Below the pieces are notes generated by a model, which saw only the letters and a program-made list of their open reading frames with translations, made no database searches and had not been told where the DNA came from. Of a DNA stretch of 48,495 nt, positions 7,713-38,372 are shown one piece after another. Origin of the DNA: Xanthobacteraceae bacterium (GTDB lineage Bacteria; Pseudomonadota; Alphaproteobacteria; Rhizobiales; Xanthobacteraceae); NCBI GenBank assembly GCA_035601615.1, contig DATNNX010000252.1:1-48495 (forward strand), read 5' to 3'. A program made the position numbers and the translations under genes. Numbering within the stretch: the first letter of the stretch is position 1; every line of letters begins with the position of its first letter.

Positions 7713-8846
7713 ATGTCGCTGATTTACCGACTCGCATCCCGCAACTTATTGCACGACCGGCTGCGTTTCATCGCGACCGTCATCGGCATCGTCTTTTCCG
7801 TGGTGCTCGTGACCATCCAGCTGGGACTCTATTTGGGGTTCGGGCGAATCGTCACCACGATGATCGATCACGCATCCGCCGATTTATGGATCATGCCGCC
7901 TGGAACGAAGTGCTTCGAGGATCCCTCGACACTCGACGAGCGCACGCGATTTCAAGCGCTCTCGATTGAGGGCGTGGCGCAAGCCGCTCCGGTCGTCATC
8001 GGCTATGCCGACTGGCGGATACCCGCGGGCGGAACCTTCCCGGTCTTCATCGTCGCGTCGGACCTGAGAGAGGGGGGATTGCTGCCCTGGAATTTGGTCG
8101 AAGGCAGCCTCGAGGCGCTGGCCATCCCCGGCGCGGTTGCGGTCGACCGGTCCTACTTCGACCGGCTCGGCATCCACGGGATCGGGGCAAACGCGGAGAT
8201 TCGCGGCCAGAAGGTGGAGGTGCGGGCGGTCACGAACGGCATCCGCTCATTCACCACAACGCCTTACGTCTTTACGACGCTCGATCGCGGGCGCGCCTTT
8301 ACCGCAACGCCAGCGAATAAAGTCACGTATTTTCTGGTGCGCGTCTCTCCTGGCGCCGACGTGGAGAGCGTGCGCCGTCGCCTCACGGCGAATCTCTCCG
8401 ACGTCGATGTCCTCACGACCGCCGACTTTCGCGACCGCAGCCGCTCCTTCTGGCTGTTCGGCACCGGCGCCGGCTTCGCGCTGTTCGCGGGCGCGTTGCT
8501 CGGGATGGTCGTGGGTACTGTCATCGTCGCACAGACGCTCTATTCCAGCACCAAGGATCACATCAACGAGTTCGCGACGCTGCGTGCCATCGGCTCCTCG
8601 CGGCTCTATATCCACAAGGTCATCGTCTGCCAGGCGCTGATCAGTGCGGTGATCGGATTCTGTCTCGCTGCCGGCGTGGGATTGGTCGTGGTCGCCGCGA
8701 CCGCGGATACCGCGTTGCCCATCGTGATGACGCCCGCACTCACTTTGGTGCTGTTCCTGCTGACGCTTCTGATGTGCGTCATCTCGGCGGTCGCCGCGAT
8801 CGTGCAGGTGACGCGCATCGATCCTGTGATGGTGTTCACGCGATGA
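7713..8846 (+). CDS. FtsX-fold ABC exporter permease (DevC-like)
   Basis: N-terminal MSLIYRLASRNLLHDRLRFIATVIGIVFSV, a large periplasmic loop and a C-terminal 3-TM FtsX domain. Its stop overlaps the next start (ATGA at 8843-8846). Confidence 0.8.
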   Translation: MSLIYRLASRNLLHDRLRFIATVIGIVFSVVLVTIQLGLYLGFGRIVTTMIDHASADLWIMPPGTKCFEDPSTLDERTRFQALSIEGVAQAAPVVIGYADWRIPAGGTFPVFIVASDLREGGLLPWNLVEGSLEALAIPGAVAVDRSYFDRLGIHGIGANAEIRGQKVEVRAVTNGIRSFTTTPYVFTTLDRGRAFTATPANKVTYFLVRVSPGADVESVRRRLTANLSDVDVLTTADFRDRSRSFWLFGTGAGFALFAGALLGMVVGTVIVAQTLYSSTKDHINEFATLRAIGSSRLYIHKVIVCQALISAVIGFCLAAGVGLVVVAATADTALPIVMTPALTLVLFLLTLLMCVISAVAAIVQVTRIDPVMVFTR

Positions 8847-24580: not shown

Positions 24581-25831
24581 CTAAGCCGCGGCGGCGAGAT
24601 TGCCGAAGCGCTTCAGGTTCTCCCGCTGCTTTTCATTGCGCGGCGGCAGCTTGAACAGCCGCGCGGCGGTGCCGCCGAGAATGTTGTGCTTGCCCTTCTC
24701 CGAGAGGAACGGCAAGTCGTAGATCGTGGCCGGCAGGTCGAAGTCCCAGTGCGGATAATCCGACGAGTAGAGGAGCTGCGTCTCGGCGTTGATCATGCGG
24801 AACGTGCATTCCAGCGCCTGGCGGTCCTGGATCTCGATCGGCTGCGAGGAATAGTACATGTCGCGCATATAGTCGGACGGCTTCTTCTTGAGGAGCGGTG
24901 CCTCCGACGGGCGCATCATGAATTCGTGATCGAGCCGCTGCATCAAGAACGGAACCCAAGCGAGCCCGGATTCGATCCAGATCACCGGCAGTTTGGGGAA
25001 GCGCTCGCCCATGCCGTTGATCACCCAATTGGTGCAGTGAAGGATGTTGTAGAAGGTGAAGCCGAGCGCGTGCACCGACAGGAAGCGGTTGCAGGCGCGG
25101 AACACCGGCTCGTTCCAGTTCGGCCCGGAGTGGAATGCGAGCGCGAGCCCGCGCTCCTCCAGCATGCGGTAGAGCCGCATATAGGCGTTATCGTTGACTT
25201 GCAGGTGGCGCACCGTCGTGACCATGAAGCCGGTCACGTGCTTGCGGCTGCCGAAGGTCTCGACCTGGCGCACGCAGGCGGCTGGATCAGAGAACGGCAG
25301 GCACAGCATGGAATACATGCGCCCGTCCGCCTCGGGCAGCACCTTCTCGGTGACCCAGCGGTTGTAGGCCCAGCAGAGGTCCGCCTCCATCTCCTTCTGC
25401 GGATGCATGCCGATGTTGAGCATGCCGGTCGGGAACAGGCAGGAGTAGTCCACGCTCATCGCATCCATCCAGCGCTCGCCGAGCTGCACGTCGCGATGCT
25501 TGCCGTTTTGCTCCGTCTTCTCGGAGCGCCGCAGCGGATAGCGGGTCACGCGCCCGCCCATGTCCTGGATGAAGCCCGCGTTGGTCGGCACGACCGAGCC
25601 GCGATCGGTCAGGCCGCGGCCGCCCATGGTCCACTGCCGGAACACGTCGTTTTCCATGTAGGGCAGGATGTCGCTGTAGTGCTCGTTTTCGTAGTGGTGC
25701 GCGTCCACATCGACGATGAGAATATCGTCGAGCTTGCGCCGCACCGCCTGCTTGCGGGCGTGGGCGAGAAGTCTGCTGGTGTTCAACTCATCGACAGAGA
25801 CGCGTCGACCGCGTTCAGCGAGGAGGTCCAT
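24581..25831 (-). CDS. Amidohydrolase-2 family protein, paralog 2
   Basis: LIVDVDAHHYE and YSSDYPHWD motifs, 416 aa. AGGAGA RBS. Collinear similarity to 12897-14144. Confidence 0.85.
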   Translation of the reverse strand: MDLLAERGRRVSVDELNTSRLLAHARKQAVRRKLDDILIVDVDAHHYENEHYSDILPYMENDVFRQWTMGGRGLTDRGSVVPTNAGFIQDMGGRVTRYPLRRSEKTEQNGKHRDVQLGERWMDAMSVDYSCLFPTGMLNIGMHPQKEMEADLCWAYNRWVTEKVLPEADGRMYSMLCLPFSDPAACVRQVETFGSRKHVTGFMVTTVRHLQVNDNAYMRLYRMLEERGLALAFHSGPNWNEPVFRACNRFLSVHALGFTFYNILHCTNWVINGMGERFPKLPVIWIESGLAWVPFLMQRLDHEFMMRPSEAPLLKKKPSDYMRDMYYSSQPIEIQDRQALECTFRMINAETQLLYSSDYPHWDFDLPATIYDLPFLSEKGKHNILGGTAARLFKLPPRNEKQRENLKRFGNLAAAA

Positions 25832-25891
25832 GGTTCGTCTCCTGGGTTTTCCAAATCCTGCTTGCGTCCTGCAGGCAAAGCCGCGTTCGGC

Positions 25892-26299
25892 CTAACGGCC
25901 GGTCCAGCTCTGCCACATGCCGAGTTCGAATACGGCGAGATTGGCAGCCTTGAGCAGCCCGCTCGCGGTGATCATGACTTCGGTGGCGGTGGCGCCGCCA
26001 CGCTGCGGAAGCGGCAGCACCTCATCGCCCGCCTCGACTTGTGCCGCGTAGGTCTTACACACGGCGGCCATGAGCGCCTGCAGCGCCTCGGTGCTCAGTG
26101 CATCGCGCCGGCCGCTGGCAAGCGCCCGCTCGAGCTCGGCGGCAAGCCGCTTCGCCTGTCCGGAGCCGGCACCGTTCGCGGTTTCACCCGCCGGTTTTGG
26201 TTCTCGCTCGACCGACTTGGCGCCTCTGGTGCGCTTTGCGGCCGGCCGCGCCGTCACTGCCGCGCGCCGCGCGGCCTTTGCCGCCCTAGGTGAGGACAT
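25892..26299 (-). CDS. Small conserved hypothetical protein (cassette partner, copy 2) with a basic Ala/Lys/Arg-rich N-terminal extension
   Basis: The C-terminal 80 aa are homologous to 14176-14481. ATG 26299 overlaps the Rieske gene 3' end by 14 nt. An alternative GTG lies at 26257. Confidence 0.6.
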   Translation of the reverse strand: MSSPRAAKAARRAAVTARPAAKRTRGAKSVEREPKPAGETANGAGSGQAKRLAAELERALASGRRDALSTEALQALMAAVCKTYAAQVEAGDEVLPLPQRGGATATEVMITASGLLKAANLAVFELGMWQSWTGR

Positions 26300-26651
26300 A
26301 AACTTCGTCGCCTTTCTCCAGCACCTTGTACTTGCGCAGCTTGAGCTTGCGATCCGACACGCATTCGCCGGTCTTCATGTCGTATTCGTAGCCGTGCCAC
26401 GGACAGACGAAATGCATTTCGTTCTCGGAGAAGTAGAGTCCCTGCGAGGTCTTGTCGGGCAACAGCCGCTCCTCGACTTTGGCGATGGTGAGGCCTTCGC
26501 AAGCGGGGCCGCCCTGGTGCAGGCAGAAATTGCTGTAGGCGTAGAATTGGCCCTCATGCCGGAAGATGCCGATCTCGTTGTCTCCGGCGAAGATGATCCG
26601 GCGGTCGCCGTCCTTGAACTCGGCGATCTTGCCGACATACTGCTCGGCCAT
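26286..26651 (-). CDS. Small Rieske [2Fe-2S] domain protein (121 aa), copy 2
   Basis: CLH and CPWHG ligand motifs. AAGGAGG RBS before ATG 26651 (MAEQYVGKIAEF). Confidence 0.88.
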   Translation of the reverse strand: MAEQYVGKIAEFKDGDRRIIFAGDNEIGIFRHEGQFYAYSNFCLHQGGPACEGLTIAKVEERLLPDKTSQGLYFSENEMHFVCPWHGYEYDMKTGECVSDRKLKLRKYKVLEKGDEVYVLT

Positions 26652-26739
26652 GCTGCGACGCCTCCTTGACGTTTCCTGCGATTGGTTCGCTTGACTTTGG
26701 GATACCCCTTGTGGCGGCGGAATCGGCATCCATCCGAAT

Positions 26740-26752
26740 TTGTATAATACAA
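26740..26752. promoter_or_regulatory. AT-rich inverted repeat TTGTAT-A-ATACAA (candidate operator / -10-like box)
   Basis: Perfect 6+6 inverted repeat with a 1-nt spacer. It is strikingly AT-rich for this genome and lies about 90 nt upstream of Rieske copy 2. Confidence 0.4.
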
Positions 26753-26831
26753 TTGCTGGAACAGAACCAGCGCCAAGGCGTGGTCCGGCATGTCGAACGG
26801 CATGCCTTTGCGAGGCCGAAGCGCCGCGCAA

Positions 26832-27758
26832 TCACGCCATCTTATTGGTCAGCGTTCCGATTTTCTCGATCCAGATTTTGACGACGTCGCCCGCCTTGAG
26901 GAATTCCCCGCGCGCCGCGCCGACCCCGGCGGGCGTGCCGGTGAGAATGATGTCGCCCGGATGGAGCGTCATCCCGCTCGATAATTGCGCGATCTGCTCG
27001 GCCAGATTGAAGATCATATTCTTGCTGTGGGAGTCCTGCTTGAGGACGTCGTTCACCCACAGCTTGAGGCTGAGCTTTTGCGGGTTGCCGATGTCGCGCG
27101 CCGGCACGATCCAAGGGCCCAGCGGGCAGGACCCGTCGAAGGTCTTGTGCTTGGTCCAATCGGACTTGAACGGGGAGGTGTCGCTGATGTTCGCCCGCCG
27201 CCCGCGGTCGCGCGCGGACAGGTCATTTGCCGCGGTATAGCCGGCAACGTAATCGAGCGCCTTGTCCTGGGGCACGTTTTTGGCCGCTCTGCCGATCACC
27301 GCCGCAAGCTCGACCTCCCAATCCATCTCGCTCGAGTACCCGGAAATCTTCACCGTCGCGCTGGGGTCGGCGAGCGTTCGCGCCGCCTTGATGAAATGCC
27401 ATGCCTTGAGGCCTTGGGTGTGCGGATCTGGCTCGGGCGGCCGGTTCATGCGCCGGGCCATTTCCGCGGCATGATCGGCATAGTTGGCGCCGGCGCAATA
27501 GATCGCCGATGGCCAGCGCACGGGTGCCAATAATTTCGCGCGTCCGAGCGGCAGCGGCTTGATGCGGCTCTTGCCCGCCGCCGCAGCCGCCTTGCGCAGG
27601 ACGCCTTGCGCCGTTCTCCAGTCCTCGAGGATGCCGAGCACCGTTGCATAGGCGGCTTTGCCGGTGAGTTTGGCGGCATCGAACACCTTGTCGTCGATCA
27701 CCAGCCCCGCGCGCGCGCCATCGGAGGCTTGGTAGGTCGCGAGCTTGTAGCCGTCCAT
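26832..27758 (-). CDS. Fumarylacetoacetate hydrolase (FAH) family protein
   Basis: The C-terminal FAH fold matches (DWEVELAAVIG, NDLSARD, GDIILTGTPAGVG). I take the start at ATG 27758 (MDGYKLATY), preceded by GGGGAGA. Confidence 0.88.
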   Translation of the reverse strand: MDGYKLATYQASDGARAGLVIDDKVFDAAKLTGKAAYATVLGILEDWRTAQGVLRKAAAAAGKSRIKPLPLGRAKLLAPVRWPSAIYCAGANYADHAAEMARRMNRPPEPDPHTQGLKAWHFIKAARTLADPSATVKISGYSSEMDWEVELAAVIGRAAKNVPQDKALDYVAGYTAANDLSARDRGRRANISDTSPFKSDWTKHKTFDGSCPLGPWIVPARDIGNPQKLSLKLWVNDVLKQDSHSKNMIFNLAEQIAQLSSGMTLHPGDIILTGTPAGVGAARGEFLKAGDVVKIWIEKIGTLTNKMA

Positions 27759-27789
27759 GTGTGTTTCTCCCCCTGTTCCCTCGGCCGCC

Positions 27790-27805
27790 GGCGAAAGCTT
27801 TCGCC
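27790..27805. promoter_or_regulatory. Perfect 16-bp palindrome GGCGAAAGCTTTCGCC in a divergent promoter region
   Basis: The sequence is self-complementary. It lies 32 nt upstream of the FAH start and about 210 nt upstream of the dioxygenase start. Confidence 0.35.
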
Positions 27806-28013
27806 CAATATATCGATCTTGTCGAGCGCGTCGAACTCCCTCCATCTCATCCGTGCATACATCGGCTACCTGGAGCGCGTGTTGCAGGGCTGGCGAGGAC
27901 GAGCCGAAGGGGTAGGATAAAGCGCGGCGAGAGCCGGCATAGCAGCCATCAGCGGCGATATCACGAGGCTTGGTCCGGCGTGCACGCTCGGAGGACAAAA
28001 AGGAGAAAACGTC

Positions 28014-28901
28014 ATGGTCAAAGCGAGACGCGTCGGTCACGCGACCTTCGAGACGCCCGATCTGGAAAAGGCCATCACTTATTACGGCGAGTTCATGGGA
28101 CTGATCGTCGCCGAGCGCGAAAAGGATCGCGCCTTTCTCGCCACCAAGATCGGGCAGCTGGTGATCGAGCTCAACAAGGCGGATCGGGCCCACTGCATCA
28201 AGCTGTCTTTCGAGGTCGCGGCCAATTCCGATTTCGGCGAATTGGCGCGCGAGCTATCCAAGGACGGCGTACGCAGCGAACTGCGCAACGATTCCGTTCC
28301 CGGCATGGGCCAAGTCCTGTCGTTCAAGGACGACAAAGGAACCATTATCGACCTGTTCAAAGACTGGAGCTATCTCGCCAAGCACGCGCAGGTCGCCGGC
28401 GTCGGGCCGCTCAAGCTCGGGCATGTCGCTTTCTTCACGCCCGACATCCAGCGCACGGTTGCGTTCTACGAGCGGGTCCTCGGCTTTCGCGTCTCCGATT
28501 GGATCGGGGATTTTTTCTGCTTCATGCGCTGCAACACGGATCATCACACCGTGAATTTCTTCACCGGGCCCGACGTGAAGCTGCATCACATCGCCTTCGA
28601 GCTCAAGGATTTCATGCATCTCCAGAACTCTTGCGACGTTATGGGCCAGAAACAGGTGCCGATCATCTGGGGTCCCTTGCGGCATGGGCCGGGGCACAAC
28701 GTCGCCACCTACCATCGCAATCCGGATGACCAGGTCGTTGAATTTTTCTCCGAGCTCGATCAAATGATCGACGAGGAGCTCGGCTATTTCGAGCCGCGGC
28801 CCTGGCACCGCGACACGCCGCAGCGGCCCAAGCGCTGGACGCCGGGCAAGACCAACGTGTGGGGCCCCTCGCCGGAGGAGGATTTCCACCGGACACAGTG
28901 A
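28014..28901 (+). CDS. Two-domain VOC-superfamily extradiol ring-cleavage dioxygenase
   Basis: Two glyoxalase-like modules. Candidate Fe ligands are LGHVAF, LHHIAF and VVEFFSE. AAAGGAGAA RBS. Confidence 0.85.
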   Translation: MVKARRVGHATFETPDLEKAITYYGEFMGLIVAEREKDRAFLATKIGQLVIELNKADRAHCIKLSFEVAANSDFGELARELSKDGVRSELRNDSVPGMGQVLSFKDDKGTIIDLFKDWSYLAKHAQVAGVGPLKLGHVAFFTPDIQRTVAFYERVLGFRVSDWIGDFFCFMRCNTDHHTVNFFTGPDVKLHHIAFELKDFMHLQNSCDVMGQKQVPIIWGPLRHGPGHNVATYHRNPDDQVVEFFSELDQMIDEELGYFEPRPWHRDTPQRPKRWTPGKTNVWGPSPEEDFHRTQ

Positions 28902-28938: not shown

Positions 28939-29715
28939 CTAAGGGCGCACCGCCGGCGTTTCGACCGGCATGCCGCGCGCGCGCCACATCAGGTAAAGCT
29001 CGAGATCGACAAGTTCGCTCGCTCCGTAGGGATAAGAGACCGCGCGCATGCCGAACAGACAGTTGCGCAGCCGCCGCTGCAGCGATCCGAGCGTTTGCCA
29101 CTCGAGGCGATAGAGCGGATATCCGGTCGGATGGCCCTGCGGGATCGCCGCGCCGGCAAGCTTTTGGCCCCAATTGTCGTCGTGGCACTGCGCGCAGGCG
29201 AGATTGAGCTGGCCTTGGCGCTCTATGAACATCGCGCGGCCGGCTTCCAGAAAAGGCCTTATCCGCGCGTCATCCGCGATGTCGATCGGCATGCCGCGCG
29301 ATTGCTCCCCGATATAGGCTGTGAGCGCCAGCAGCTCCTTGCTTTCGAAGGCAAGCGGGGTCGCGCGCTGCTGTTGAGTGCGGCACATATTGATCCGCTG
29401 TTCGAGATCGACCGGGCGGCCGCGCACCGCGTTGAATGCGGGATAGCGCGCCGCCACGCCTTTCATGCTCGTGCCCGCGTCGCCGTGGCAGTCCGCGCAT
29501 GATTTGCCGGCAGAACCCTCCTTACGCTGCCAGAGGGTCTCGCCGTCGAGCACCCACAACGTGGCGGGATTGGCGCTATCGTCGTCCTGCATCGCGCGTG
29601 TCTCTCGCGCCATGAAGTCGTAACCCGACTTGCGCTCCGAAAACGGAATGTCCGCCGCAGCCGCCGCAGCGCCCAAGGCGGCAAGCATGAAAACAGCAGC
29701 GGCCGCCCGCGTCAT
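28939..29715 (-). CDS. soxA: Dihaem cytochrome c SoxA
   Basis: Signal peptide, two haem motifs (CADCH and CAQCH) and the conserved GYPLYRLEWQTLGSLQRRLRNC region. ATGA overlap with soxZ. Confidence 0.9.
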   Translation of the reverse strand: MTRAAAAVFMLAALGAAAAAADIPFSERKSGYDFMARETRAMQDDDSANPATLWVLDGETLWQRKEGSAGKSCADCHGDAGTSMKGVAARYPAFNAVRGRPVDLEQRINMCRTQQQRATPLAFESKELLALTAYIGEQSRGMPIDIADDARIRPFLEAGRAMFIERQGQLNLACAQCHDDNWGQKLAGAAIPQGHPTGYPLYRLEWQTLGSLQRRLRNCLFGMRAVSYPYGASELVDLELYLMWRARGMPVETPAVRP

Positions 29716-30032
29716 TCGACCGTGATATTGACGGACTCGGCCGCCGTAAAGCCGTTGTCGCCGGTCCATTCGAAGCTCAGCGTGCCGCTTTCGCCGGCAA
29801 CGGTGAAAAAGGTCAGAAACGGATTGGCGGCGATAGCCGGGAACAGCTCGGCGCGGAAAATTTCCTCTCCATTATATTTGCAGGTGAATTCGGTGATGAT
29901 GTCGCGCGGCACCGGCTTCCCGGTACTGTCAGGGCGAAAGCCGGTCTCCATGACATGCGAGATCAGCGTCTTGATCTCGATCACTTCGCCGCGCTTGGCC
30001 TTCGCCGGCGCATTGATGAGGGCGCGCGCCAT
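29712..30032 (-). CDS. soxZ: Sulfur-carrier complex subunit SoxZ
   Basis: 106 aa. KRGEVIEIKTLISHVMETGFRPDSTGKPVPRDII matches my recollection of SoxZ closely. Confidence 0.88.
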   Translation of the reverse strand: MARALINAPAKAKRGEVIEIKTLISHVMETGFRPDSTGKPVPRDIITEFTCKYNGEEIFRAELFPAIAANPFLTFFTVAGESGTLSFEWTGDNGFTAAESVNITVE

Positions 30033-30034
30033 GC

Positions 30035-30523
30035 TCAGCTCCCTTCGAGACACGCGGCAAGGGTGACGACAACCTCGACCTCGTCCGACCAGAACGAGCC
30101 GTCGCTCATCTGCGCCACGGCAACGACCTTCTGGGTATCGGCGAGGCGAATGCGGGTCGAGAAGCTCGCCCGCCCGGCGCGTGGGCCGAAACCAGCGCCG
30201 ATGACGTTCGGCTGCGGATTTTTCTCGGTGAAGACGTGGATCGCCTTGACGTGGTCGTCTTGCGTCATCGGGCTTTCGCAGGACACCGTGAGCGGAACGG
30301 CATTGCCGTTCTCGATCAATGCGGGCACGTCGATCTTGACCTTGCCCTTCTTGAGCGGCGCCTCGCCGACGACGTTTCGGATCGCGGCGTGCATCGATGC
30401 CGGCGTGGCGGAGCTTTGCTCGACCGCAAGCGGCAACACGATGCCTGTGGCGCCGGCGAGCGCTGCCGTCTCGAGCAAGAAGCGGCGCCGTGTCCTCTGC
30501 AGCGTGCCGTCGTCGCGGGTCAT
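30035..30523 (-). CDS. soxY: SoxY-related carrier protein with variant C-terminal arm (...VTLAACLEGS instead of ...GGCGG)
   Basis: Tat signal QRTRRRFLLETAALAGA. The SoxY core matches (ENGNAVPLTVS, VKAIHVFTEKNP). I verified the C-terminus by hand translation of 30035-30076. GAGGAG RBS before ATG 30523. Confidence 0.85.
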   Translation of the reverse strand: MTRDDGTLQRTRRRFLLETAALAGATGIVLPLAVEQSSATPASMHAAIRNVVGEAPLKKGKVKIDVPALIENGNAVPLTVSCESPMTQDDHVKAIHVFTEKNPQPNVIGAGFGPRAGRASFSTRIRLADTQKVVAVAQMSDGSFWSDEVEVVVTLAACLEGS

Positions 30524-30528
30524 GGTGC

Positions 30529-31029
30529 TCACTCCTCGCGCAGCGTCGCGAGATAGGCGACGACATCCTCGATCTGTTCCGCGCTCAGCACCGGCTTGCC
30601 TTGAAACGCCGGGGCGACGCGCGTGAGACCATCGACTCGATAATAGGGCGGCATGATCGTGTTCGGGTTGAGCCGGCTCGCATCCACGATCCGCAGCCGC
30701 AGCTGACCTTCAGACCAGCGCGCTCCGCTTCCTTTGAGGTCTGGTGCGAGTGTGCCCTGGAACTTCTCCTTCGGGAAGGGCCCGTTGTGGCAGAGCAGGC
30801 AGAGCCCCTCCTGCCGGTTAACGACGATACTGCGCCCGCGTTCCACATCGCCCTTTGCGCCGGTCAACGAATGCGGGATTGCGTCTCCAACGACGGTATA
30901 AGGACGCAGTTGCTCTTCGGCCCGCGCGCCATCGCATGCTGCGATCATCGCGGCGAGCGCGATCGCCGCGATGCGCGCGCCGCAACGCTCAGCCAAAAAC
31001 TTCGGTGGTGATCGTTTTGAACCAGGCAT
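30529..31029 (-). CDS. soxX: Monohaem cytochrome c SoxX
   Basis: Haem motif CLLCH and the conserved MPPYYR and [13 protein letters not shown] regions. The ATG 31029 start overlaps soxF by 41 nt. A TTG at 30996 is an alternative. Confidence 0.85.
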
Positions 31030-32254
31030 TCGCGAAAGTGGCTTCTAGCGCGCGCGTGGCGTTCGGCGCATCGAGCGGGCTCACGCCGGCCGTCCCTTCG
31101 ATGTCCTTGATCTGACCATCCGCCGGCCGGTACACGCCTTCGATCGAGATGCCGTAGTCGGGCGCCACCAAGCTGTAGCAGGTGTTGATGAGCCTCGGCT
31201 CATCCGGCGTGCCGCCGGCAAGAAGCTTCGCCACCGCGGCGGCGCAGACCTTGGCCTGGGCATTGGCCGAGAACGCGGATTTCGGCATCGCGCCTGCGAT
31301 CGAGGCGTCGCCGACGACGTGGATATTGGGCTGCAATTTGGATTCGAACGTGACAGCGTCGATCGGGCACCAACCGGTGCGATCGGCGACGCCGACGATC
31401 TCGGCGATGCGGCCCGCCTTCTGCGGCGGAATGACGTTTGCGACATCGGCCTTGTGGCGGTCGAAATCCGTGATCAGCGTCATCGCACCAACGTCGACCG
31501 AAGTAACCTTGCCGCCCTTCGATAACGATACCCATTCGAGATTGGGATAGAGCGCTTTCCACGCGTTCTCGAACAGGCGCTGCTTGGAGAAGGCGTCCTT
31601 GGCATCGAGGATGATCAGCTTCGATTTCGGCTTCTTGGTTTTGAGGTAGTAGGCGATCAGGCTTGCCCGCTCGTAAGGACCTGGCGGGCAGCGGAAGGGA
31701 TTGGCGGGCGCCGAGATCACGACGGTGCCGCCGTCCTCCATCGCCTCGAGCTGCCGGCGCAGTAGCAGCGTCTGCTCGCCGGCTTTCCAGGCATGCGGCA
31801 TGCGTTCGGCGGCCGTCTCGGTATAGCCGGGCAGGGCGTCCCAGCGGATGTCGATGCCAGGCGAGAGCACTAGGCGGTCATAGGCAAGCTCCGCGCCATT
31901 GCCAAGCGTCACCGTCCGTCGCTGGGGATCGATGGCGGTCGCGGGCGAAAACTGGACGGCCACCTGATCGGTCGCGAACCGATCGTAGCCGAATTGTTGT
32001 GCGGCGAGCTCACGCAACCCGGCGATCACCAAGTTGCTGAACGGGCAGGCGATGAACGTGCGGTTCGCCTCGACCAGGGTCACGCTGATGCGCGGATCGA
32101 TGCGTTTGATGAAACGGGCGCAGGTCGCGCCCCCAAATCCGCCGCCCACCACGACGACGCGAGCGCCTGCGCCTTGCGCAATGGCCGGGAGCGGCAACAA
32201 GGCCGCGCCGGCAGTGACGGTTTTGAGGAATTCACGCCGGTTTGTGCGCCTCAT
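30989..32254 (-). CDS. fccB: Flavocytochrome c sulfide dehydrogenase flavoprotein subunit (FccB/SoxF)
   Basis: Tat signal [14 protein letters not shown] fingerprint [14 protein letters not shown] and the conserved [13 protein letters not shown] region. GGAGG RBS. Confidence 0.9.
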
Positions 32255-32270
32255 GATCGGCCTCCATTCC

Positions 32271-32576
32271 TCAATCTTTTTGCGCGCCGTACCAGGCTGC
32301 GATTGCTTTGACCTCGTCTTCGGAAAATCCTTTGGCGATTCGCTCCATCACGGTCGATGGAAGCTGTCCCGTCTTGAACGCCTGCATGGCCGCGACGATG
32401 TCCGCGGGATTGCGGCCGATCAGTCCTGGCACGGCGGTGTCCGCCGCGGGCGTACTCGAATGACAGCCGGAACAGGAGAGCGCGCCGGGCGGTGCTTCGG
32501 TCAATCCGGCCGCCGAAACATGACCGGCAAAGATAAATCCTAAGGCGGCAACACTCCCGATGCGTGTGGCGTTCAT
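32271..32576 (-). CDS. Small monohaem c-type cytochrome (FccA/SoxE-like single domain)
   Basis: Signal peptide [23 protein letters not shown], haem motif CSGCH and MQAFKTG...MERIAKG. It ends 16 nt upstream of fccB. Confidence 0.85.
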
Positions 32577-32620: not shown

Positions 32621-34774
32621 TTATGCGCTGCTGAGATCGTGGTTCTTGAGCGGCAGGGACCGGATGCGCTTGCCGGTCGCCGCGAAGAGGGCGTTGCACA
32701 AGGCGGGGGCGAGCGGCGGCACGGCGGTTTCGCCGATCCCGCCCCAGCCCTCGCCCGGGACGATGACGGTTTCGATCCGCGGCATGTCCGCCAGACGCAG
32801 CATCGGATAGTCGTGGAAATTCGCCTGCTCGACCCGTCCGTCCCTGATGGTGATCTCGCCGTAAAGCGCCGCCGTCAGCGCGAACACGACTGCGCTCTCG
32901 GTCTGCATTTCGATGGTGAGCGGGTTGACCACGTGCCCGGCGTCAATCGCAGAGACGACGCGGTGCACGCGCACTTTGCCGTCGCTGGCGACAGAGGCCT
33001 CGACCACCTGCGCGCAGATGCTGTTTTGCGAGTTATGGAACGCGATGCCGCGGAATGCGCCCCCCGGCGGCGACGTGCCCCATCCGGCACGGGTCGCAAC
33101 GGCGTTGAGCACCGCAAGCTCTCTCGGCTTTCCCGCCAACAGCTTGCGCCTGAACAGATAGGGATCGGCACCGGCCGCAAAGGCCATCTCGTCGACGAAG
33201 CTTTCCTTGAAGAACGCGTTCTGCGAATGGTTGACGCTGCGCCAGACCCCGACAGGAACGTGGGTGTTGCGCATCGCGAAATCGAGGCGATAGTTCGGCA
33301 CGCCATAAGGCATGTCTTCCAAAAGGCCTTGGAGAAAATTCCTGTCGACCCCGAACTGCATCACGCGCGGAGATACCGCCGCAATGATGGACTGGCCGGC
33401 GATGCGGATTGACCAGGCGATCGGCGTGCCGGCGGCGTCGAGCCCGGCGACGAGCCTTGCCATTGCCACCGGACGATAAAAGTCGTGGCGGATGTCCTCT
33501 TCGCGCGTCCAGACGAGCTTCACCGGCTGGCCGACCTCTTTCGCGATCAGCACCGCTTGGCGCACGAAGTCCTGAAAGATCCCCCGTCGGCCGAAGCCCC
33601 CGCCGAGCATCATTTTGTGAATCACGACTTTGCTCGGCGGCACGCCGGCGGCATCGGCCGCGATCGCGAGCGCGGTCTCGCCGTCCTGGGTCGGCGCCCA
33701 GACCTCGACCACATCCGCTGTCACCTGCGCGGTGCAGTTCTGCGGCTCCATCGTGGCGTGAGCGAGAAAGGGCACCTCGTAATCCGCTTCGACCCGCTTG
33801 ATCGTATGCGCGAGCGCGCGCTCGACATCGCCGTCGTTGCGGCCGACGCGCGCATCCGTGGCGGTAAGCCCGGCTTGCAGGTGCGCGCGAATGCTGCCGC
33901 TGGAGACGGTGGAGTTCTCACCAAAATCCCAGCTCACCGGCAGCGCCTGCGCCGCCCGTTGCGCCTGCCACCAGCTGTCTGCGATCACGGCGACAGCATC
34001 CGCGAGCTTCACCACGCGGCGGACGCCTTTCATGCCCGACATCTTGCTCTCGTCGACCCATCTGAGCGAACCCTTGAACACCGGGCATTGGATGATCGCC
34101 GCGTAGAGCATGTTCGGCAGCTGAACGTCGATGGCGTAGATCGGCTTGCCCGCAACCTTGTCGGGAACATCGAGACGCCTTTGCCGCGTGCCGATCAGCT
34201 TCCAGTCCTTCGGGTCCTTCAAGGCGACCTGCGTGGGGGGAGCGATATCGGCCGCCGCCGCTGCGATCCGGCCGAACGTGATCCTGCGGCCGCTCGGGCG
34301 GTGGGTGATCACGCCTTGCGCGGCGGTGCATTCGGCATCGGGTACGTTCCAGCGCGCGGCGGCGGCCGCGATCAGCAACGCGCGCGCGGTAGCGCCGGCG
34401 CGGCGCAAATCATTCTGGGAGGCGCTGACGGAGCGGCTCGCGCCCGTCGACATGTTGCCCCAGACGCGGTCCCGCTTGCGATTCTCGTGCGGTGGCGCAA
34501 ACTCGGCCTTCACCTTGCTCCAGTCGCATTCGAGCTCTTCCGCCACCAGCATCGGCAAGGCGGTAAAGCTGCCTTGACCCATCTCCGATTTGGCGACGCG
34601 GATGATCACGGTCTCGTCGGGCTCGATCACGATCCAGGCGGTGATCTCGCGCGCGGAGGTTGCGGCGTGCGTGGCGCGCGGGCCGAACGGAATGTCGAAG
34701 CCGAGTACCAGCGAGCCGCCGACCGCGGCCACGCTGGCGAGAAAGGAGCGGCGGTCGAGGCGAACGCGGCTCAC
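32621..34774 (-). CDS. Tat-exported molybdopterin-binding large subunit, IorB/aldehyde-oxidoreductase-like (pair 1)
   Basis: Inferred GTG start at 34774, forming a GTGA overlap with the small-subunit stop. Tat motif [16 protein letters not shown]. The family region [40 protein letters not shown] is present. Confidence 0.85.
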
Positions 34775-35244
34775 GGCAGTCTCGCTCCGCTCACGCGCCG
34801 GCCCGCGACGGCGTGGATCGCGGCGCGGATGCGCTGGTAGGTGCCGCAGCGGCAGATATTCGTGATGGCGGCGTCGATCTCCGCGTCGCTCGGATGAGGC
34901 TTCTCCTCGAGCAACGCGGCCACCGCCATCATCATTCCGCTCTGGCAATAGCCGCATTGCGGAACCTCGAGATCGAGCCACGCCTGCTGCACGGGATGGA
35001 GCGCGCCGTTTCGTCCCAGGCCTTCGATGGTGGTGATGTGCTTGTCAGCGGCCGTGCTCACCGGAACCGAACAAGAACGGATCGGCGCGCGGTCGATGTG
35101 GACCGTGCAGGCCCCGCATTGCGCGATCCCGCAGCCGTATTTGGTGCCGAGGAGCCCGAGCGTGTCCCGCAGCACCCAGAGCAGCGGCGTCTCCGGATCG
35201 ACATCGACGTCGTGGGCCCGTCCATTCACTGTAAGACGCGCCAT
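34771..35244 (-). CDS. [2Fe-2S]-binding small subunit, IorA/CoxS-like (pair 1)
   Basis: The two cluster motifs are [12 protein letters not shown] and [10 protein letters not shown]...CRCGTY. GGGAGAG RBS before ATG 35244. Confidence 0.9.
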
Positions 35245-35391
35245 GGGTCTCTCCCGACCGAGCTTCAAAACGGCGGTTCGATCGACCTGAGATTAGTTCA
35301 AAAAAATCGCGCGCGCAAAATTTGCCGACGCGAACGTAAGCGTCAACGCCTCGGGCGCGGGCCGCGCGTCTGAATATCTTTCCACGATGAA

Positions 35392-35416
35392 AGCGGCGGC
35401 CGCATCGGCCGCCGCT
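35392..35416 (-). terminator. GC-rich hairpin between the two IorAB-like pairs (possible terminator or processing site)
   Basis: AGCGGCGGCCG-cat-CGGCCGCCGCT, an 11-bp perfect stem starting 10 nt after the pair-2 large-subunit stop. The downstream U-tract is poor. Confidence 0.45.
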
Positions 35417-35425
35417 TCGTTCTCG

Positions 35426-37606
35426 TTACGCGAACGAGATGTTGTGGCTCTTGAGCGGCATCGAGCGGATGCGCTGGCCCGTGGCGGCAAAGTACGCGTT
35501 GAGCACGGCCGGCGCGGCGACGCAGATCGTCGGCTCGCCGACGCCGCCCCAGAAGCCGCCCGACGGTATGAGGACCGTTTCCACCTTCGGCATCTCGGCA
35601 ATCCGCATGATGTCGTAGCTGTCGAAGTTCTGCTGCTCGATGCGTCCATCCTTGACGGTGCAGACGCCGTTGAATAGCGCGGTCAGCCCATACGCCGCGG
35701 AGCCCGCAACCTGCCGTTCGATTTGGGCCGGATTGACGGCGTATCCCGGGTCGGTGGCGGCAACGATGCGGTGGATCTTGATCTTGCTGCCGCTCACCAC
35801 CGAGATTTCCGCCGCCCCGGCCACATAGCTGCCATAGGCCATCTGCTGGGCAAGCCCGCGATAGACGCCTTGCGGGGCAGGCTGTCCCCAGCCGATCTTC
35901 TCGGCCACGGCATTGAGCACCGCGAGGTGCTTGGGATATTTCGCCATCAGCTTGCGGCGAAACTCGAGCGGATCCTCTCCGGCCGCGTGCGCGAGCTCAT
36001 CCATGAAGCACTCGAGATAGATCGCGTTTTGATTGTTGTTGACGCCGCGCCAGAAGCCCGGCGTGACGTGCGGGTTTCGCATGGCATGATCGATCAGCAG
36101 ATTGGGAACGTCGTAACCGAACGCGCCTTCGGAGCCGCCGGGATTGAGCCCCTGGAAGGTCGCGGGGTCGCGACCGTTCTGCAGCCGCGCAGGAGCGAGG
36201 GTGGCCAGGATCGACTGGCCGGAAATCCGCATGTGCAAGCCGGTGAGATTGCCGTTGGCATCGAGCGCACCGGTGAGCTTGCACTGCGTGATCGGATGGT
36301 ACGTGTCCTGCGTCATATCCTCTTCGCGCGACCAGAGAAGCTTGATCGGGGTGCCCGGCACCTGCTTTGCGATCAGCACCGCTTGGGTGACGTAATCGGT
36401 CCGTCCGCGCCGGCCGAAACCGCCGCCGAGCAGGAACTTGTGCACGTCGCACTTCGCGATCGGCAGCCCCGACGCCTCGGAGGTCGCGGCCAACGCCGCT
36501 TCCGCATTCTGCGAGCTCGTCCACACCTCACATTTGTCGGGCGTGTAGACCGCGGTTGCGTTCATCGGCTCCATGCACGCATGCGCCTGGTACGGATAGC
36601 CGTAGACTGCCTCGACCTTCTTCGCCGCGCCGGCGATCGCTGCTTTCACGTCGCCCTTTTGGTTGCCGACGAAAGCTTCCTGCGCATCGAGTCCGGCCTT
36701 GAGCAGCTCGCCGATCGAGGCGCTGCTGACCTTGGCGTTCTCGCCCTCGTCCCACACGATCGGTAGCGCTTCGAGCGCGGTCTTGGCCCGCCACCAGCTG
36801 TCGCCGACGACGGCGACGGCGGTCTGACCGACCTGCACGACGTGCTTCACGCCCTTGTTGCCGGCGATCTTGGCGGCGTCGAAGCTTTTCACTTTGCCGC
36901 CGTGAACGGGGCACGCCTTCACCGCGGCATACAACATGCCGGGCAGCCTCACGTCGATCGCGTAAGGCGCCTTGCCGGTCAGCTTGTCCGGCGTATCGAG
37001 CCGCTTGGCCGGCTTGCCGGCGATCTTCCAGTCCTTGGGATCCTTGAGCTTGACCTCGGCGGGCGGCTCGAGCTTTGCCGCGGCCTCGGCTACCTTGCCA
37101 TAGGTGGTGGTGCGCCCGGACGGCTTGTGCGTGATGACGCTATTCTCGGCCGTGCACTCGGCGGTCGGCACGTTCCACGTATTGGCGGCGGCCTGGATCA
37201 GCATCATGCGCGCGGCAGCGCCGCCCTTGCGCACGTATTCGTTCGACTCGCGGATGCCGCGGCTGCCGGTAGTCGAGAAATCGCCCCACACGCGCTTGCG
37301 GGCGACGTTCTGGCCCGGCGTCGGCTGATCGGCTGTGACCTTCGACCAGTCGCATTCGAGCTCCTCGGCGACGAGCTGCGCGAGCCCCGTCAGCGTGCCT
37401 TGGCCCATCTCGGCCCGGGCGATGCGAATGGCCACGGTGTCGTCGGGGCGGATCACCACCCAGGCATTGATCTCGGGCGTCGCGTCCTGCGCGCGCGCGA
37501 CCGGCGGGCCAGCGAAGGGAAGCTCGAAGCCGAGCGTCAAGCCGCCGCCCAAGGCGGCTGCGCTCACGACGAAACTGCGGCGATCGATGTTCGCTACGTG
37601 ATTCAT
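35426..37606 (-). CDS. Tat-exported molybdopterin-binding large subunit, IorB-like (pair 2)
   Basis: ATG 37606 (MNHVANIDRRSFVVSAAALGG, Tat motif) is preceded by GGGAGG. Collinear similarity to pair 1 ([40 protein letters not shown]). Confidence 0.87.
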   Translation of the reverse strand: MNHVANIDRRSFVVSAAALGGGLTLGFELPFAGPPVARAQDATPEINAWVVIRPDDTVAIRIARAEMGQGTLTGLAQLVAEELECDWSKVTADQPTPGQNVARKRVWGDFSTTGSRGIRESNEYVRKGGAAARMMLIQAAANTWNVPTAECTAENSVITHKPSGRTTTYGKVAEAAAKLEPPAEVKLKDPKDWKIAGKPAKRLDTPDKLTGKAPYAIDVRLPGMLYAAVKACPVHGGKVKSFDAAKIAGNKGVKHVVQVGQTAVAVVGDSWWRAKTALEALPIVWDEGENAKVSSASIGELLKAGLDAQEAFVGNQKGDVKAAIAGAAKKVEAVYGYPYQAHACMEPMNATAVYTPDKCEVWTSSQNAEAALAATSEASGLPIAKCDVHKFLLGGGFGRRGRTDYVTQAVLIAKQVPGTPIKLLWSREEDMTQDTYHPITQCKLTGALDANGNLTGLHMRISGQSILATLAPARLQNGRDPATFQGLNPGGSEGAFGYDVPNLLIDHAMRNPHVTPGFWRGVNNNQNAIYLECFMDELAHAAGEDPLEFRRKLMAKYPKHLAVLNAVAEKIGWGQPAPQGVYRGLAQQMAYGSYVAGAAEISVVSGSKIKIHRIVAATDPGYAVNPAQIERQVAGSAAYGLTALFNGVCTVKDGRIEQQNFDSYDIMRIAEMPKVETVLIPSGGFWGGVGEPTICVAAPAVLNAYFAATGQRIRSMPLKSHNISFA

Positions 37607-37620
37607 GGCTGCCTCCCCGC

Positions 37621-38073
37621 TCACGCGCTCGCGGCAGCGGCGTGGATCGCCGCGCGCACCTGCTGGTAGGTGCCGCAGCGGCAGATATTGGTGATGTTGC
37701 TGTCGATGTCGGCGTCGGTCGGTTTCGGCTTGTCCTTGAGCAGCGCCGCCACCGCCATGATCATGCCGCACTGGCAATAACCGCATTGCGGCACGTCGTG
37801 ATCGAGCCAGGCCTGCTGCACCTTGTGCAGCACGCCGTTCTGCGCCAATCCCTCGATGGTAGTGATCTGACGGCCCTCGACTGCGCTCAACGGCACCGAG
37901 CACGAGCGCATCGCAATGCCGTCGACATGCACGCTGCAGGCGCCGCACTGGGCGATGCCGCAGCCATATTTGGTGCCGGTCAGTCCAAGCGTGTCGCGCA
38001 ACACCCACAGCAGCGGGGTCTCGGGGTCGACATCGACCTGGTGAGTCCTTCCATTGACGGTGAGTTCAGCCAT
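37621..38073 (-). CDS. [2Fe-2S]-binding small subunit, IorA-like (pair 2)
   Basis: [48 protein letters not shown] is near-identical in its N-terminal third to pair 1. GGAGG RBS. Confidence 0.9.
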
Positions 38074-38372
38074 TTTGCAAACCTCCATGAATCGCCGGCA
38101 TGAAGAGGTAATGATTCGTCCGGCGACCCCTCGGCCCCGCCGCGCATCTTGGGGGAAACCTGTCCGTAGGAACACCGCGCATGGTAGCAAAGTTCCATGG
38201 TGACATGGACCCCTTACCACGAGCGCAGCGGGGCCGCCGCGTAAAATCTGAATAAACTGCGAGCGGTCGCCAATCGCCGCCGATCGAGAGATGCGCGGCG
38301 CCAGAAACCGTTTGAGCCGTCTGCGAACGTCCCCTACCTTTTCGGGGCGGCGGTGGGACGGCAGATTGGATC

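Follow-up and report, generated by a model that had tools for sequence, protein, structure and literature searches.

The window analysed here is the whole of contig DATNNX010000252.1 (C252; 48,495 nt), which belongs to a 3.16-Mb, 70%-complete metagenome-assembled genome (MAG) of a Xanthobacteraceae bacterium (GCA_035601615.1). Its minus strand carries ten genes in the order iorA1-iorB1-iorA2-iorB2-fccA-fccB-soxX-soxY-soxZ-soxA, in which two molybdenum enzymes of the IorAB type are encoded upstream of a flavocytochrome c and of Sox-like proteins with a variant SoxY carrier arm (AAC-x-E). Gene neighbourhoods and trees strongly support a functional link between IorAB and the variant Sox proteins. 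Judged by the same comparisons, the distal pair, IorA1B1, is the dedicated, co-inherited partner of the variant Sox module, and the pair beside the cytochrome gene, IorA2B2, is an accessory. In the following, loci are labelled with L-numbers and genomes with G-numbers; L052 is the closest relative of the window and C248 is another contig of the same MAG.

The linkage was surveyed first within the family. Of the 201 Xanthobacteraceae genomes sampled, 76 have a soxY which passes the TIGR04487 cut-off, and a search with IorB2 in the same sample revealed, in most of them, an IorB gene approximately 2.1 kb upstream of this soxY and on the same strand. For the corresponding loci, 20-kb neighbourhoods were fetched and the window proteins were mapped onto them. 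Where at least 4.6 kb of sequence is available upstream of an AAC-x-E soxY (87 loci), an IorB gene precedes the soxY in the same orientation in 86 cases (median distance 2054 nt; the exception is L112), although these counts are not independent, since some genomes were fetched twice and many are close kin. De novo clustering of the open reading frames in 101 loci yielded iorA, iorB, cytochrome c, fccB and soxXYZA as the only conserved neighbours, and more than 580 loci matched in one scan. Among the carriers are Bradyrhizobium isolates (L103, L118, L120, L123 and L128), and proteins of B. diazoefficiens fall in the same 90% clusters as the cassette proteins. A decayed cassette is present in G190 (L155, G190:C11:99000-118900), where soxY and soxZ are split across frames and fccB is partial; the IorB of this locus matches only residues 1-701 of 726 and is possibly truncated.

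Outside the family the linkage persists. In a wider sample of 400 genomes of the phylum, all seven loci from other proteobacterial families and classes have iorA-iorB directly beside soxX, the variant soxY, soxZ and soxA. Because four of these seven loci are without fccAB (in one other locus fccAB follows soxA), the invariant core of the cassette is, as far as gene content tells, IorAB plus SoxXYZA, and FccAB is dispensable. The whole iorAB-fccAB-soxXYZA cassette was also found in four MAG loci of Rokubacteria/Methylomirabilota (L087, L096, L101 and L104), one of them on a 1.6-Mb contig; in a fifth locus of this group, L117, a short contig contains the fccB-soxA part only and ends before iorAB. 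The IorB proteins of Rokubacteria form one clade nested among those of Xanthobacteraceae, and their IorA proteins are likewise nested among alphaproteobacterial ones. The nesting of IorB shows that the cassette has moved as a unit, and together with that of IorA it suggests that the whole block passed from one phylum to another. The sequence-only reading of the window had called for a survey of the co-occurrence of IorAB with SoxY proteins having the AAC(I/L)E arm, and it would have regarded the adjacency as probably coincidental if a transcript boundary lay between the molybdoenzyme genes and the cytochrome gene and the synteny were not conserved. The synteny is conserved at all the distances surveyed, from the 87 related loci to the seven outside the family and the four in Rokubacteria/Methylomirabilota, and the adjacency is thus not a coincidence.

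The features of the block, all on the minus strand, are the following.

iorA1, 37621-38073, minus strand: small subunit of 150 aa with two [2Fe-2S] clusters; start ATG 38073, stop TGA 37621.
iorB1, 35426-37606, minus strand: Tat-signalled molybdopterin large subunit of 726 aa, B1 clade.
Stem-loop, 35391-35417, minus strand: GC-rich, 9 nt past the iorB1 stop.
AT-rich motif TTTTTTTGAACTAATCT, 35290-35306, minus strand: upstream of iorA2, candidate promoter or operator.
iorA2, 34771-35244, minus strand: small subunit of 157 aa with two [2Fe-2S] clusters; start ATG 35244, stop TGA 34771.
iorB2, 32621-34774, minus strand: Tat-signalled molybdopterin large subunit of 717 aa, B2 clade; start GTG 34774, stop TAA 32621.
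fccA, 32271-32576, minus strand: monohaem cytochrome c of 101 aa with the motif CSGCH; start ATG 32576.
fccB/soxF, 30989-32254, minus strand: Tat-signalled sulfide dehydrogenase flavoprotein; Pfam FCSD_central (4.4e-48) and FCSD-flav_bind.
soxX, 30529-31029, minus strand: monohaem cytochrome; TIGR04485, 81.7 bits (cut-off 61).
soxY variant, 30035-30532, minus strand: carrier arm ...VTLAACLEGS; TIGR04487 ('AACIE arm'), 204 bits (cut-off 172).
soxZ, 29712-30032, minus strand: Pfam SoxZ (4.6e-29); TIGR04490, 91 bits (cut-off 76).
soxA, 28939-29715, minus strand: dihaem cytochrome; TIGR04484, 240 bits (cut-off 110).

All ten genes are under purifying selection, with dN/dS values between 0.08 and 0.37 in comparison to L052 (iorA1 0.15, iorA2 0.12, iorB2 0.15), and therefore both molybdenum enzymes appear to be in use. 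The ATG of iorA1 is preceded by GGAGG, and for iorB1 two starts are conceivable: a GTG at 37624, which overlaps the iorA1 stop as GTGA, and the ATG at 37606, which is likelier because GGGGAGG (37617-37611) is located just upstream. The GTG start of iorB2 overlaps the iorA2 stop as GTGA, iorB2 and fccA are separated by 44 nt containing only the ribosome-binding site of fccA, and soxA likely starts with the ATG at 29715, overlapping the soxZ stop as ATGA. The sequence-only reading had noted a GTGA junction and a 44-nt spacing for one pair. The spacing is exact and the junction exists at the cytochrome-proximal pair, but GTGA is not limited to one pair, even if the distal pair more likely uses the ATG at 37606.

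Both pairs, at 38073-35426 and 35244-32621, were described in that reading as a [2Fe-2S] small subunit followed by a molybdenum cofactor large subunit, and coordinates, Pfam domains and cysteines agree with this description. IorA1 and IorA2 contain the domains Fer2 and Fer2_2 (in IorA1 with 1.1e-9 and 1.6e-28, respectively), and in both of them the eight [2Fe-2S] cysteines are intact (C-x4-C-x2-C-x11-C and C-x2-C-x31-C-x-C). IorB1 and IorB2 contain MoCoBD_1 and MoCoBD_2. The twin-arginine motifs IDRRSFV and LDRRSFL, one per large subunit, could be read as proposed, and the lack of an FAD subunit was also confirmed, there being no room for its gene in the contiguous iorAB gene block. IorB1 matches the aldehyde dehydrogenase large subunit 8GY3_C over its full length (E 1.7e-79) and IorB2 matches it end to end (E 9.5e-65); the motif GGGFGRR and the catalytic motif G-x-G-E (GVGEP / GIGET) align with 8GY3_C and with PaoC. 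The predicted fold of the large subunits is set by the full-length match to 8GY3, and by domain content and motifs we class IorA1B1 and IorA2B2 as FAD-less, Tat-exported periplasmic molybdenum hydroxylases of the xanthine oxidase family, of the type represented by IorAB and the membrane-bound aldehyde dehydrogenase (ALDH).

With the membrane-bound ALDH of acetic acid bacteria (8GY3) and IorAB, the isoquinoline 1-oxidoreductase of Brevundimonas diminuta, which likewise lack FAD and have two or three subunits, the window enzymes share a small subunit with two [2Fe-2S] clusters, a Tat-signalled large subunit and the same domain order, and cytochrome c is the expected electron acceptor. The alignable similarity is modest, however, and 8GY3 has a trihaem cytochrome subunit, whereas no gene for a dedicated multihaem cytochrome c subunit is present in the cassette, whose sole small cytochrome is FccA-like. 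The NCBIfam equivalog cut-offs are not reached by the IorAB proteins, and the names under which they appear in databases, 'isoquinoline 1-oxidoreductase' and 'xanthine dehydrogenase family protein', are derived from homology alone. One residue deserves mention: His437 of IorB1 (..EEDMTQDTYHPIT..) is His in all IorB proteins of the B1 clade and Arg in B2, in the paralogue encoded on C248, in two other paralogues and in the ALDH 8GY3. It is one of nine positions which cleanly separate B1 from B2; the alignments to PaoC, of low identity, are ambiguous regarding its placement in the active site.

The history of the two pairs differs between small and large subunits. IorA1 and IorA2 share 76% identity overall and 44 of the first 50 residues, so the near-identity over this stretch reported in the sequence-only reading was reproduced. 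IorB1 shows 52% identity to IorB2 and 63% to the C248 paralogue. Trees of IorB were calculated with FastTree (up to 115 sequences) and with IQ-TREE under a mixture model (38 sequences), and in them the B1 and B2 lineages are split by a branch with a support of 99. The B1 clade (support 99-100) contains the IorB1 of the window and all Sox-linked IorB proteins that occur in single copy, also the ones found in other classes and in Rokubacteria, with the C248 paralogue as its sister just outside. IorB1 orthologues with 66-77% identity are encoded upstream of AAC-x-E soxY genes, and IorA1 is 65-94% identical to the IorA preceding B1-type IorB in related loci. The B2 clade comprises the IorB2 of the window, the copies downstream of pair 1 in its relatives, copies upstream of pair 1 (L091, L141 and L142), and orphans. 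The orphan IorB2-like genes (L132-L139; for example L132:8102-10354 and L136:8038-10209) are located outside sox loci, and their products are 59-66% identical to IorB2; a gene for a [2Fe-2S] small subunit was not found within 8 kb of them. The orphan in L132 adjoins a response-regulator gene.

A recent tandem duplication of the large subunits is ruled out by these identities (52% versus 63%) and by the trees. By contrast, the IorA proteins encoded upstream of B2 form a single clade (support 95) nested in the radiation of IorA1, in a tree of few columns and moderate support. Because of this nesting, which fits the 76% identity, we regard iorA2 as a later copy of iorA1, supplied to an old, captured large subunit. 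Some genomes (L034, L080) have iorA1-iorB1-iorB2 without a second iorA, and among the loci with at least 7.5 kb of upstream sequence one IorB copy is present in 64, two in 10 and three in 4. According to this phylogenetic pattern, this lineage gained IorA2B2 as an accessory enzyme: the gene for a large subunit of an old paralogous clade became inserted between iorB1 and fccA. Thus, of the tandem duplication assumed in the sequence-only reading, the part concerning the small subunit stands, but the large subunits come from two old clades, and the arrangement is better described as a conserved partner plus a captured accessory paralogue. The MAG harbours a third IorAB pair, C248:13277-15942 (L140:8278-10934), the nearest non-Sox relative of pair 1. 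It follows genes for a histidine kinase, a response regulator and an ECF sigma factor, and no cytochrome gene was found near it.

The Sox-like part of the cassette resembles and departs from canonical Sox, as known from Paracoccus pantotrophus and from sox locus I of B. diazoefficiens. SoxA, SoxX and SoxZ pass the NCBIfam thresholds set for true Sox families, the carrier cysteine is near the C-terminus, the proteins are predicted to be exported to the periplasm, and a SoxF is associated. The canonical system has a GGCGG arm, SoxB and SoxCD, in which SoxC belongs to the sulfite oxidase family; the cassette has an AACLE arm, neither SoxB nor SoxCD, and an enzyme from the xanthine oxidase family instead. 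SoxY scores 114.8 bits against TIGR04488 (the GGCGG SoxY), below the cut-off of 125 bits, and its arm, VT(L/I)AAC(L/V/T/I)E, is kept in relatives. Neither the window nor the 70%-complete MAG contains a SoxB. No gene of the sulfite oxidase family (SoxCD type) was found in the window, and the four PF00174 matches in the MAG are all on other contigs.

The 101-aa cytochrome has its best PDB match (E 7.7e-12) in 5N1T_B, the cytochrome chain (102 aa) of a flavocytochrome c sulfide dehydrogenase; next come the FccA chains 3VRD_A and 1FCD_C. FccB matches 5N1T_A over its full length (E 6.3e-144). On the basis of these matches the small cytochrome is assigned as a monohaem FccA, the partner of FccB, like the monohaem cytochrome of 5N1T and unlike the dihaem one of 1FCD; a role as IorAB subunit was considered and is ruled out by the same matches. 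In distinction from 5N1T, the FccAB of the window is embedded in an IorAB-Sox cassette. The fccA gene is present in about half of the related loci and missing from many of those in Bradyrhizobium.

The stem-loop behind iorB1 is a conserved feature of the cassette. In the window it consists of a perfect GC stem of 12-13 bp with a loop of 3 nt and a weak U tail (AAGCGGCGGCCG-AUG-CGGCCGCCGCUU), and the pattern GCGGCGG(C/G)C-N3-8-G(C/G)CCGCCGC occurs a single time in the 3.16-Mb MAG. In 71 of 89 unique flanks of relatives, the stop codon of B1-type iorB is followed within 30 nt by the start of a GC-rich stem with 9 bp or more, compared to 3.3% of dinucleotide shuffles, and the hairpin is kept across Xanthobacteraceae and Rokubacteria. 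Since the relatives display 31 different stem sequences, the structure is kept and not merely the letters. No comparable stem follows iorB2. When the region 28.5-38.7 kb was searched against Rfam, neither the hairpin nor the iorA1 leader had a match above threshold. The iorB-fccB gap of Bradyrhizobium L123 is just 53 nt long and includes the hairpin (about 8030-8065); a promoter would not fit there, and so the hairpin of this locus must act within a single transcript, as an attenuator or as a protector of the 3'-end. The hairpin after iorB1 is likely an intercistronic attenuator or an RNA-stability hairpin.

The gap between iorB1 and iorA2 in the window is longer, 181 nt (35244-35426). It probably contains a promoter, although a scan for the sigma-70 consensus found none: the motif TTTTTTTGAACTAATCT is present at the same place upstream of iorA2 in L052, L053, L056 and L060 and is a candidate for a promoter or operator from which iorA2B2 and the genes behind it are controlled. 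With a stem-loop and a probable promoter in this gap, it is unlikely that the 9-kb block is one simple transcript, and we infer the layout iorA1B1 / hairpin / (promoter?) iorA2B2-fccAB-soxXYZA. Upstream of iorA, recurrent motifs were noticed, namely TTGATTTGAAC-N-GTTCCA in Bradyrhizobium and GATTTCCATATTAGAATTGAACCAAGCT in the clade of the window (for example in L123 at about 5290-5320, in L036, in L120, and in L053 at about 2230), as well as a leader of approximately 70 nt that precedes iorA1 (window 38074-38150) and is conserved in comparison to L052, L053 and L055. These may correspond to a site for a shared regulator or to a leader RNA.

On the other side of the block, genes for an extradiol dioxygenase, an FAH-family hydrolase, a Rieske protein and an 'amidohydrolase' (window 24581-28901) keep their position downstream of soxA. 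They are found beside the cassette in about 15-18 loci, all in the subclade of the window (among L033, L052-L069, L080, L083, L094 and L098), and this neighbourhood probably reflects shared ancestry rather than shared function.

The gene content of the window fits a type of 'second sox cluster' described before. Starkeya novella, of the same family, has a cluster soxX2Y2Z2A2F2 (Snov_1982-1977) next to a molybdenum enzyme (Snov_1975/1976) belonging to the xanthine oxidase family, and this cluster lacks soxB and soxCD (Kappler and Nouwens 2013, Front Microbiol 4:304; PMC3797975). Compared by the published description of gene content, the two have in common SoxXA, SoxYZ, a SoxF-type flavocytochrome, a two-subunit enzyme belonging to the xanthine oxidase family and the lack of SoxB and SoxCD; they differ in that S. 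novella has one molybdenum enzyme and another published gene order, whereas the window has two enzymes, the second of them from another clade. The sequence-only reading had stated that no characterised Sox system with genetically linked enzymes of the xanthine dehydrogenase family was known. This holds in so far as the linkage is uncharacterised, but it is already on record in a single passing mention for S. novella. Our literature searches on the AACIE-arm SoxY, on soxY2/soxZ2 and on the IorAB-soxY linkage yielded nothing relevant, and in the literature searched there is no report of the double-enzyme form, the two-clade history or the conserved hairpin.

What could the linked proteins do together? 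The sequence-only reading had offered two ideas, a carbon or heterocyclic substrate whose oxidation feeds the cytochromes or action on a carrier-bound species, and both are kept here as candidates. The reading we tentatively prefer, based on gene content and arm sequence, is that the molybdenum enzyme oxidises a group bound to the carrier. SoxXA would oxidatively join a sulfur substrate, which FccAB may supply from sulfide, to the arm cysteine of SoxY, and the molybdenum enzyme, replacing SoxB and SoxCD, would oxidise the carrier-bound group; from Mo, the electrons would travel over both [2Fe-2S] clusters to c-type haems whose genes are in the cassette. Through the B2 enzyme the range of what is processed would be broadened or changed, and the hairpin together with the probable promoter would set separate expression levels for pair 1 on one hand and for pair 2 with the fcc and sox genes on the other. 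One may speculate further that IorA1B1 is the first xanthine-oxidase-family enzyme acting on a protein-bound substrate, the adduct of the AAC-x-E arm, and thereby defines a third, SoxB/SoxCD-independent branch of carrier-based periplasmic sulfur oxidation, with IorA2B2 as a second 'head' that shares the carrier and the type of small subunit and extends the chemistry. In this full form the proposal is doubtful.

Several points weigh against oxidation on the carrier. We know of no member of the xanthine oxidase family which acts on a protein-bound or sulfur-centred substrate. In a search with IorB1, B1-type IorAB without sox neighbours was found at three separate places inside the B1 clade (L151-L154 in two genera; L156 and L157 are second copies). 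Because of these separate positions in the tree we consider the sox-free IorAB to be secondary escapes, but they suggest that a B1 enzyme can work without the carrier, and this favours a free substrate. Furthermore, the hairpin behind iorB1 may divide the transcript of iorAB from that of the sox genes. Finally, proteomics of S. novella did not detect SoxAX2 and SoxYZ2, and transcript levels on glucose, methanol and thiosulfate were very low (PMC3797975).

The strongest alternative, which is possible and which we rate below oxidation on the carrier, is that the substrate of IorAB is a small molecule free in the periplasm (for instance an aldehyde, an N-heterocycle or a C=S-containing organosulfur compound) and that the Sox-like proteins are accessories. 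SoxXA and FccA would then be the haem acceptors which replace the trihaem subunit of ALDH, and the variant SoxYZ together with FccB would trap and oxidise a reactive sulfur by-product. The main argument for this alternative is that the dependence between the two parts is asymmetric: the variant Sox genes, almost never found without IorAB, appear to need it, while B1-type IorAB can stand alone, and beside one stand-alone pair, L153, there is a cytochrome c gene. The closest solved relative is an aldehyde dehydrogenase which passes its electrons to a cytochrome c subunit, and the iorAB genes of the cassette come without a gene for a dedicated cytochrome subunit. What a free substrate leaves unexplained is that a SoxYZ carrier and a SoxXA loader, and not just any cytochrome c, are kept across classes and phyla; nor is a transporter, regulator or catabolic gene conserved beside the cassette.

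It is improbable that the sox-like genes are spare isoenzymes of canonical Sox, which either use a SoxB and SoxCD encoded elsewhere or have no role, with the molybdenum enzymes as unrelated neighbours. A view of this kind was offered for S. novella, where the authors proposed for the second cluster no role, or a role under untested conditions (PMC3797975), and the very low expression there would fit it. The scores of SoxA, SoxX and SoxZ above the cut-offs for true Sox families are also in its favour, as is the presence of SoxB in 53 of the 76 cassette-bearing Xanthobacteraceae genomes. The other 23, however, have no SoxB match at E 1e-100, and ten of them are 98-100% complete (G014, G021, G077, G085, G115, G123, G128, G147 and G195 among those). 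In B. diazoefficiens only soxY1, of sox locus I, is needed for thiosulfate oxidation: a soxY1 mutant cannot oxidise thiosulfate, and the second soxY is no substitute (PMC5748708). We infer that this soxY2 is the AAC-x-E copy. Because of the complete genomes without SoxB and the exclusive requirement for soxY1 in B. diazoefficiens, we take the variant Sox module not to be a mere reserve for the usual Sox pathway. A SoxY arm unlike GGCGG and purifying selection on all genes argue in the same direction, and the near-universal linkage to one IorB clade would be left unexplained.

Enzymes of the xanthine oxidase family require a terminal sulfido ligand on molybdenum, which is delivered via a cysteine persulfide. 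The Sox-like proteins could accordingly form a periplasmic persulfide relay which restores the labile Mo=S ligand of the exported hydroxylases. Such a relay would answer the need for this ligand and would explain why a cysteine carrier, an enzyme to load it and a sulfide dehydrogenase strictly accompany IorAB, whereas SoxB and SoxCD do not. We hold it to be rather improbable: no relay of this kind accompanies the stand-alone B1 enzymes or the many other Tat-signalled IorAB paralogues encoded in the same genomes, there is no precedent for it, and four to six genes are a large investment for repair. That the genes are neighbours by coincidence, or still are so because close relatives inherited the arrangement from a common ancestor, is most improbable, since, despite the many non-independent loci sampled from one family and the terminator-like hairpin between iorB1 and the downstream genes, the linkage persists with rearranged accessory genes in other families and classes and in another phylum, the cassette is conserved while its flanking genes vary, and the hairpin-containing gap of L123 is too short for a separate promoter.

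In summary, an IorAB-Sox cassette which the literature mentions just once, in passing, is common: 76 of the 201 sampled Xanthobacteraceae genomes have it, and it also occurs in other proteobacterial families and in Rokubacteria. New from this window are the identification of the upstream pair as the conserved partner, the observation that a large subunit from an 'orphan' clade can join the module, and the conserved hairpin which divides the block. The assignments of the partner and of the hairpin indicate which gene to delete first and where transcripts likely end, and with B. diazoefficiens and S. novella there are genetically tractable hosts which have cassettes of such type. If the molybdenum enzyme acts on the carrier, as we tentatively prefer, this would be a type of chemistry new to the xanthine oxidase family, and the sulfur cycle in soil would gain a route. 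If instead its substrate is free, the Sox proteins would have an unrecognised role as partners of hydroxylases.

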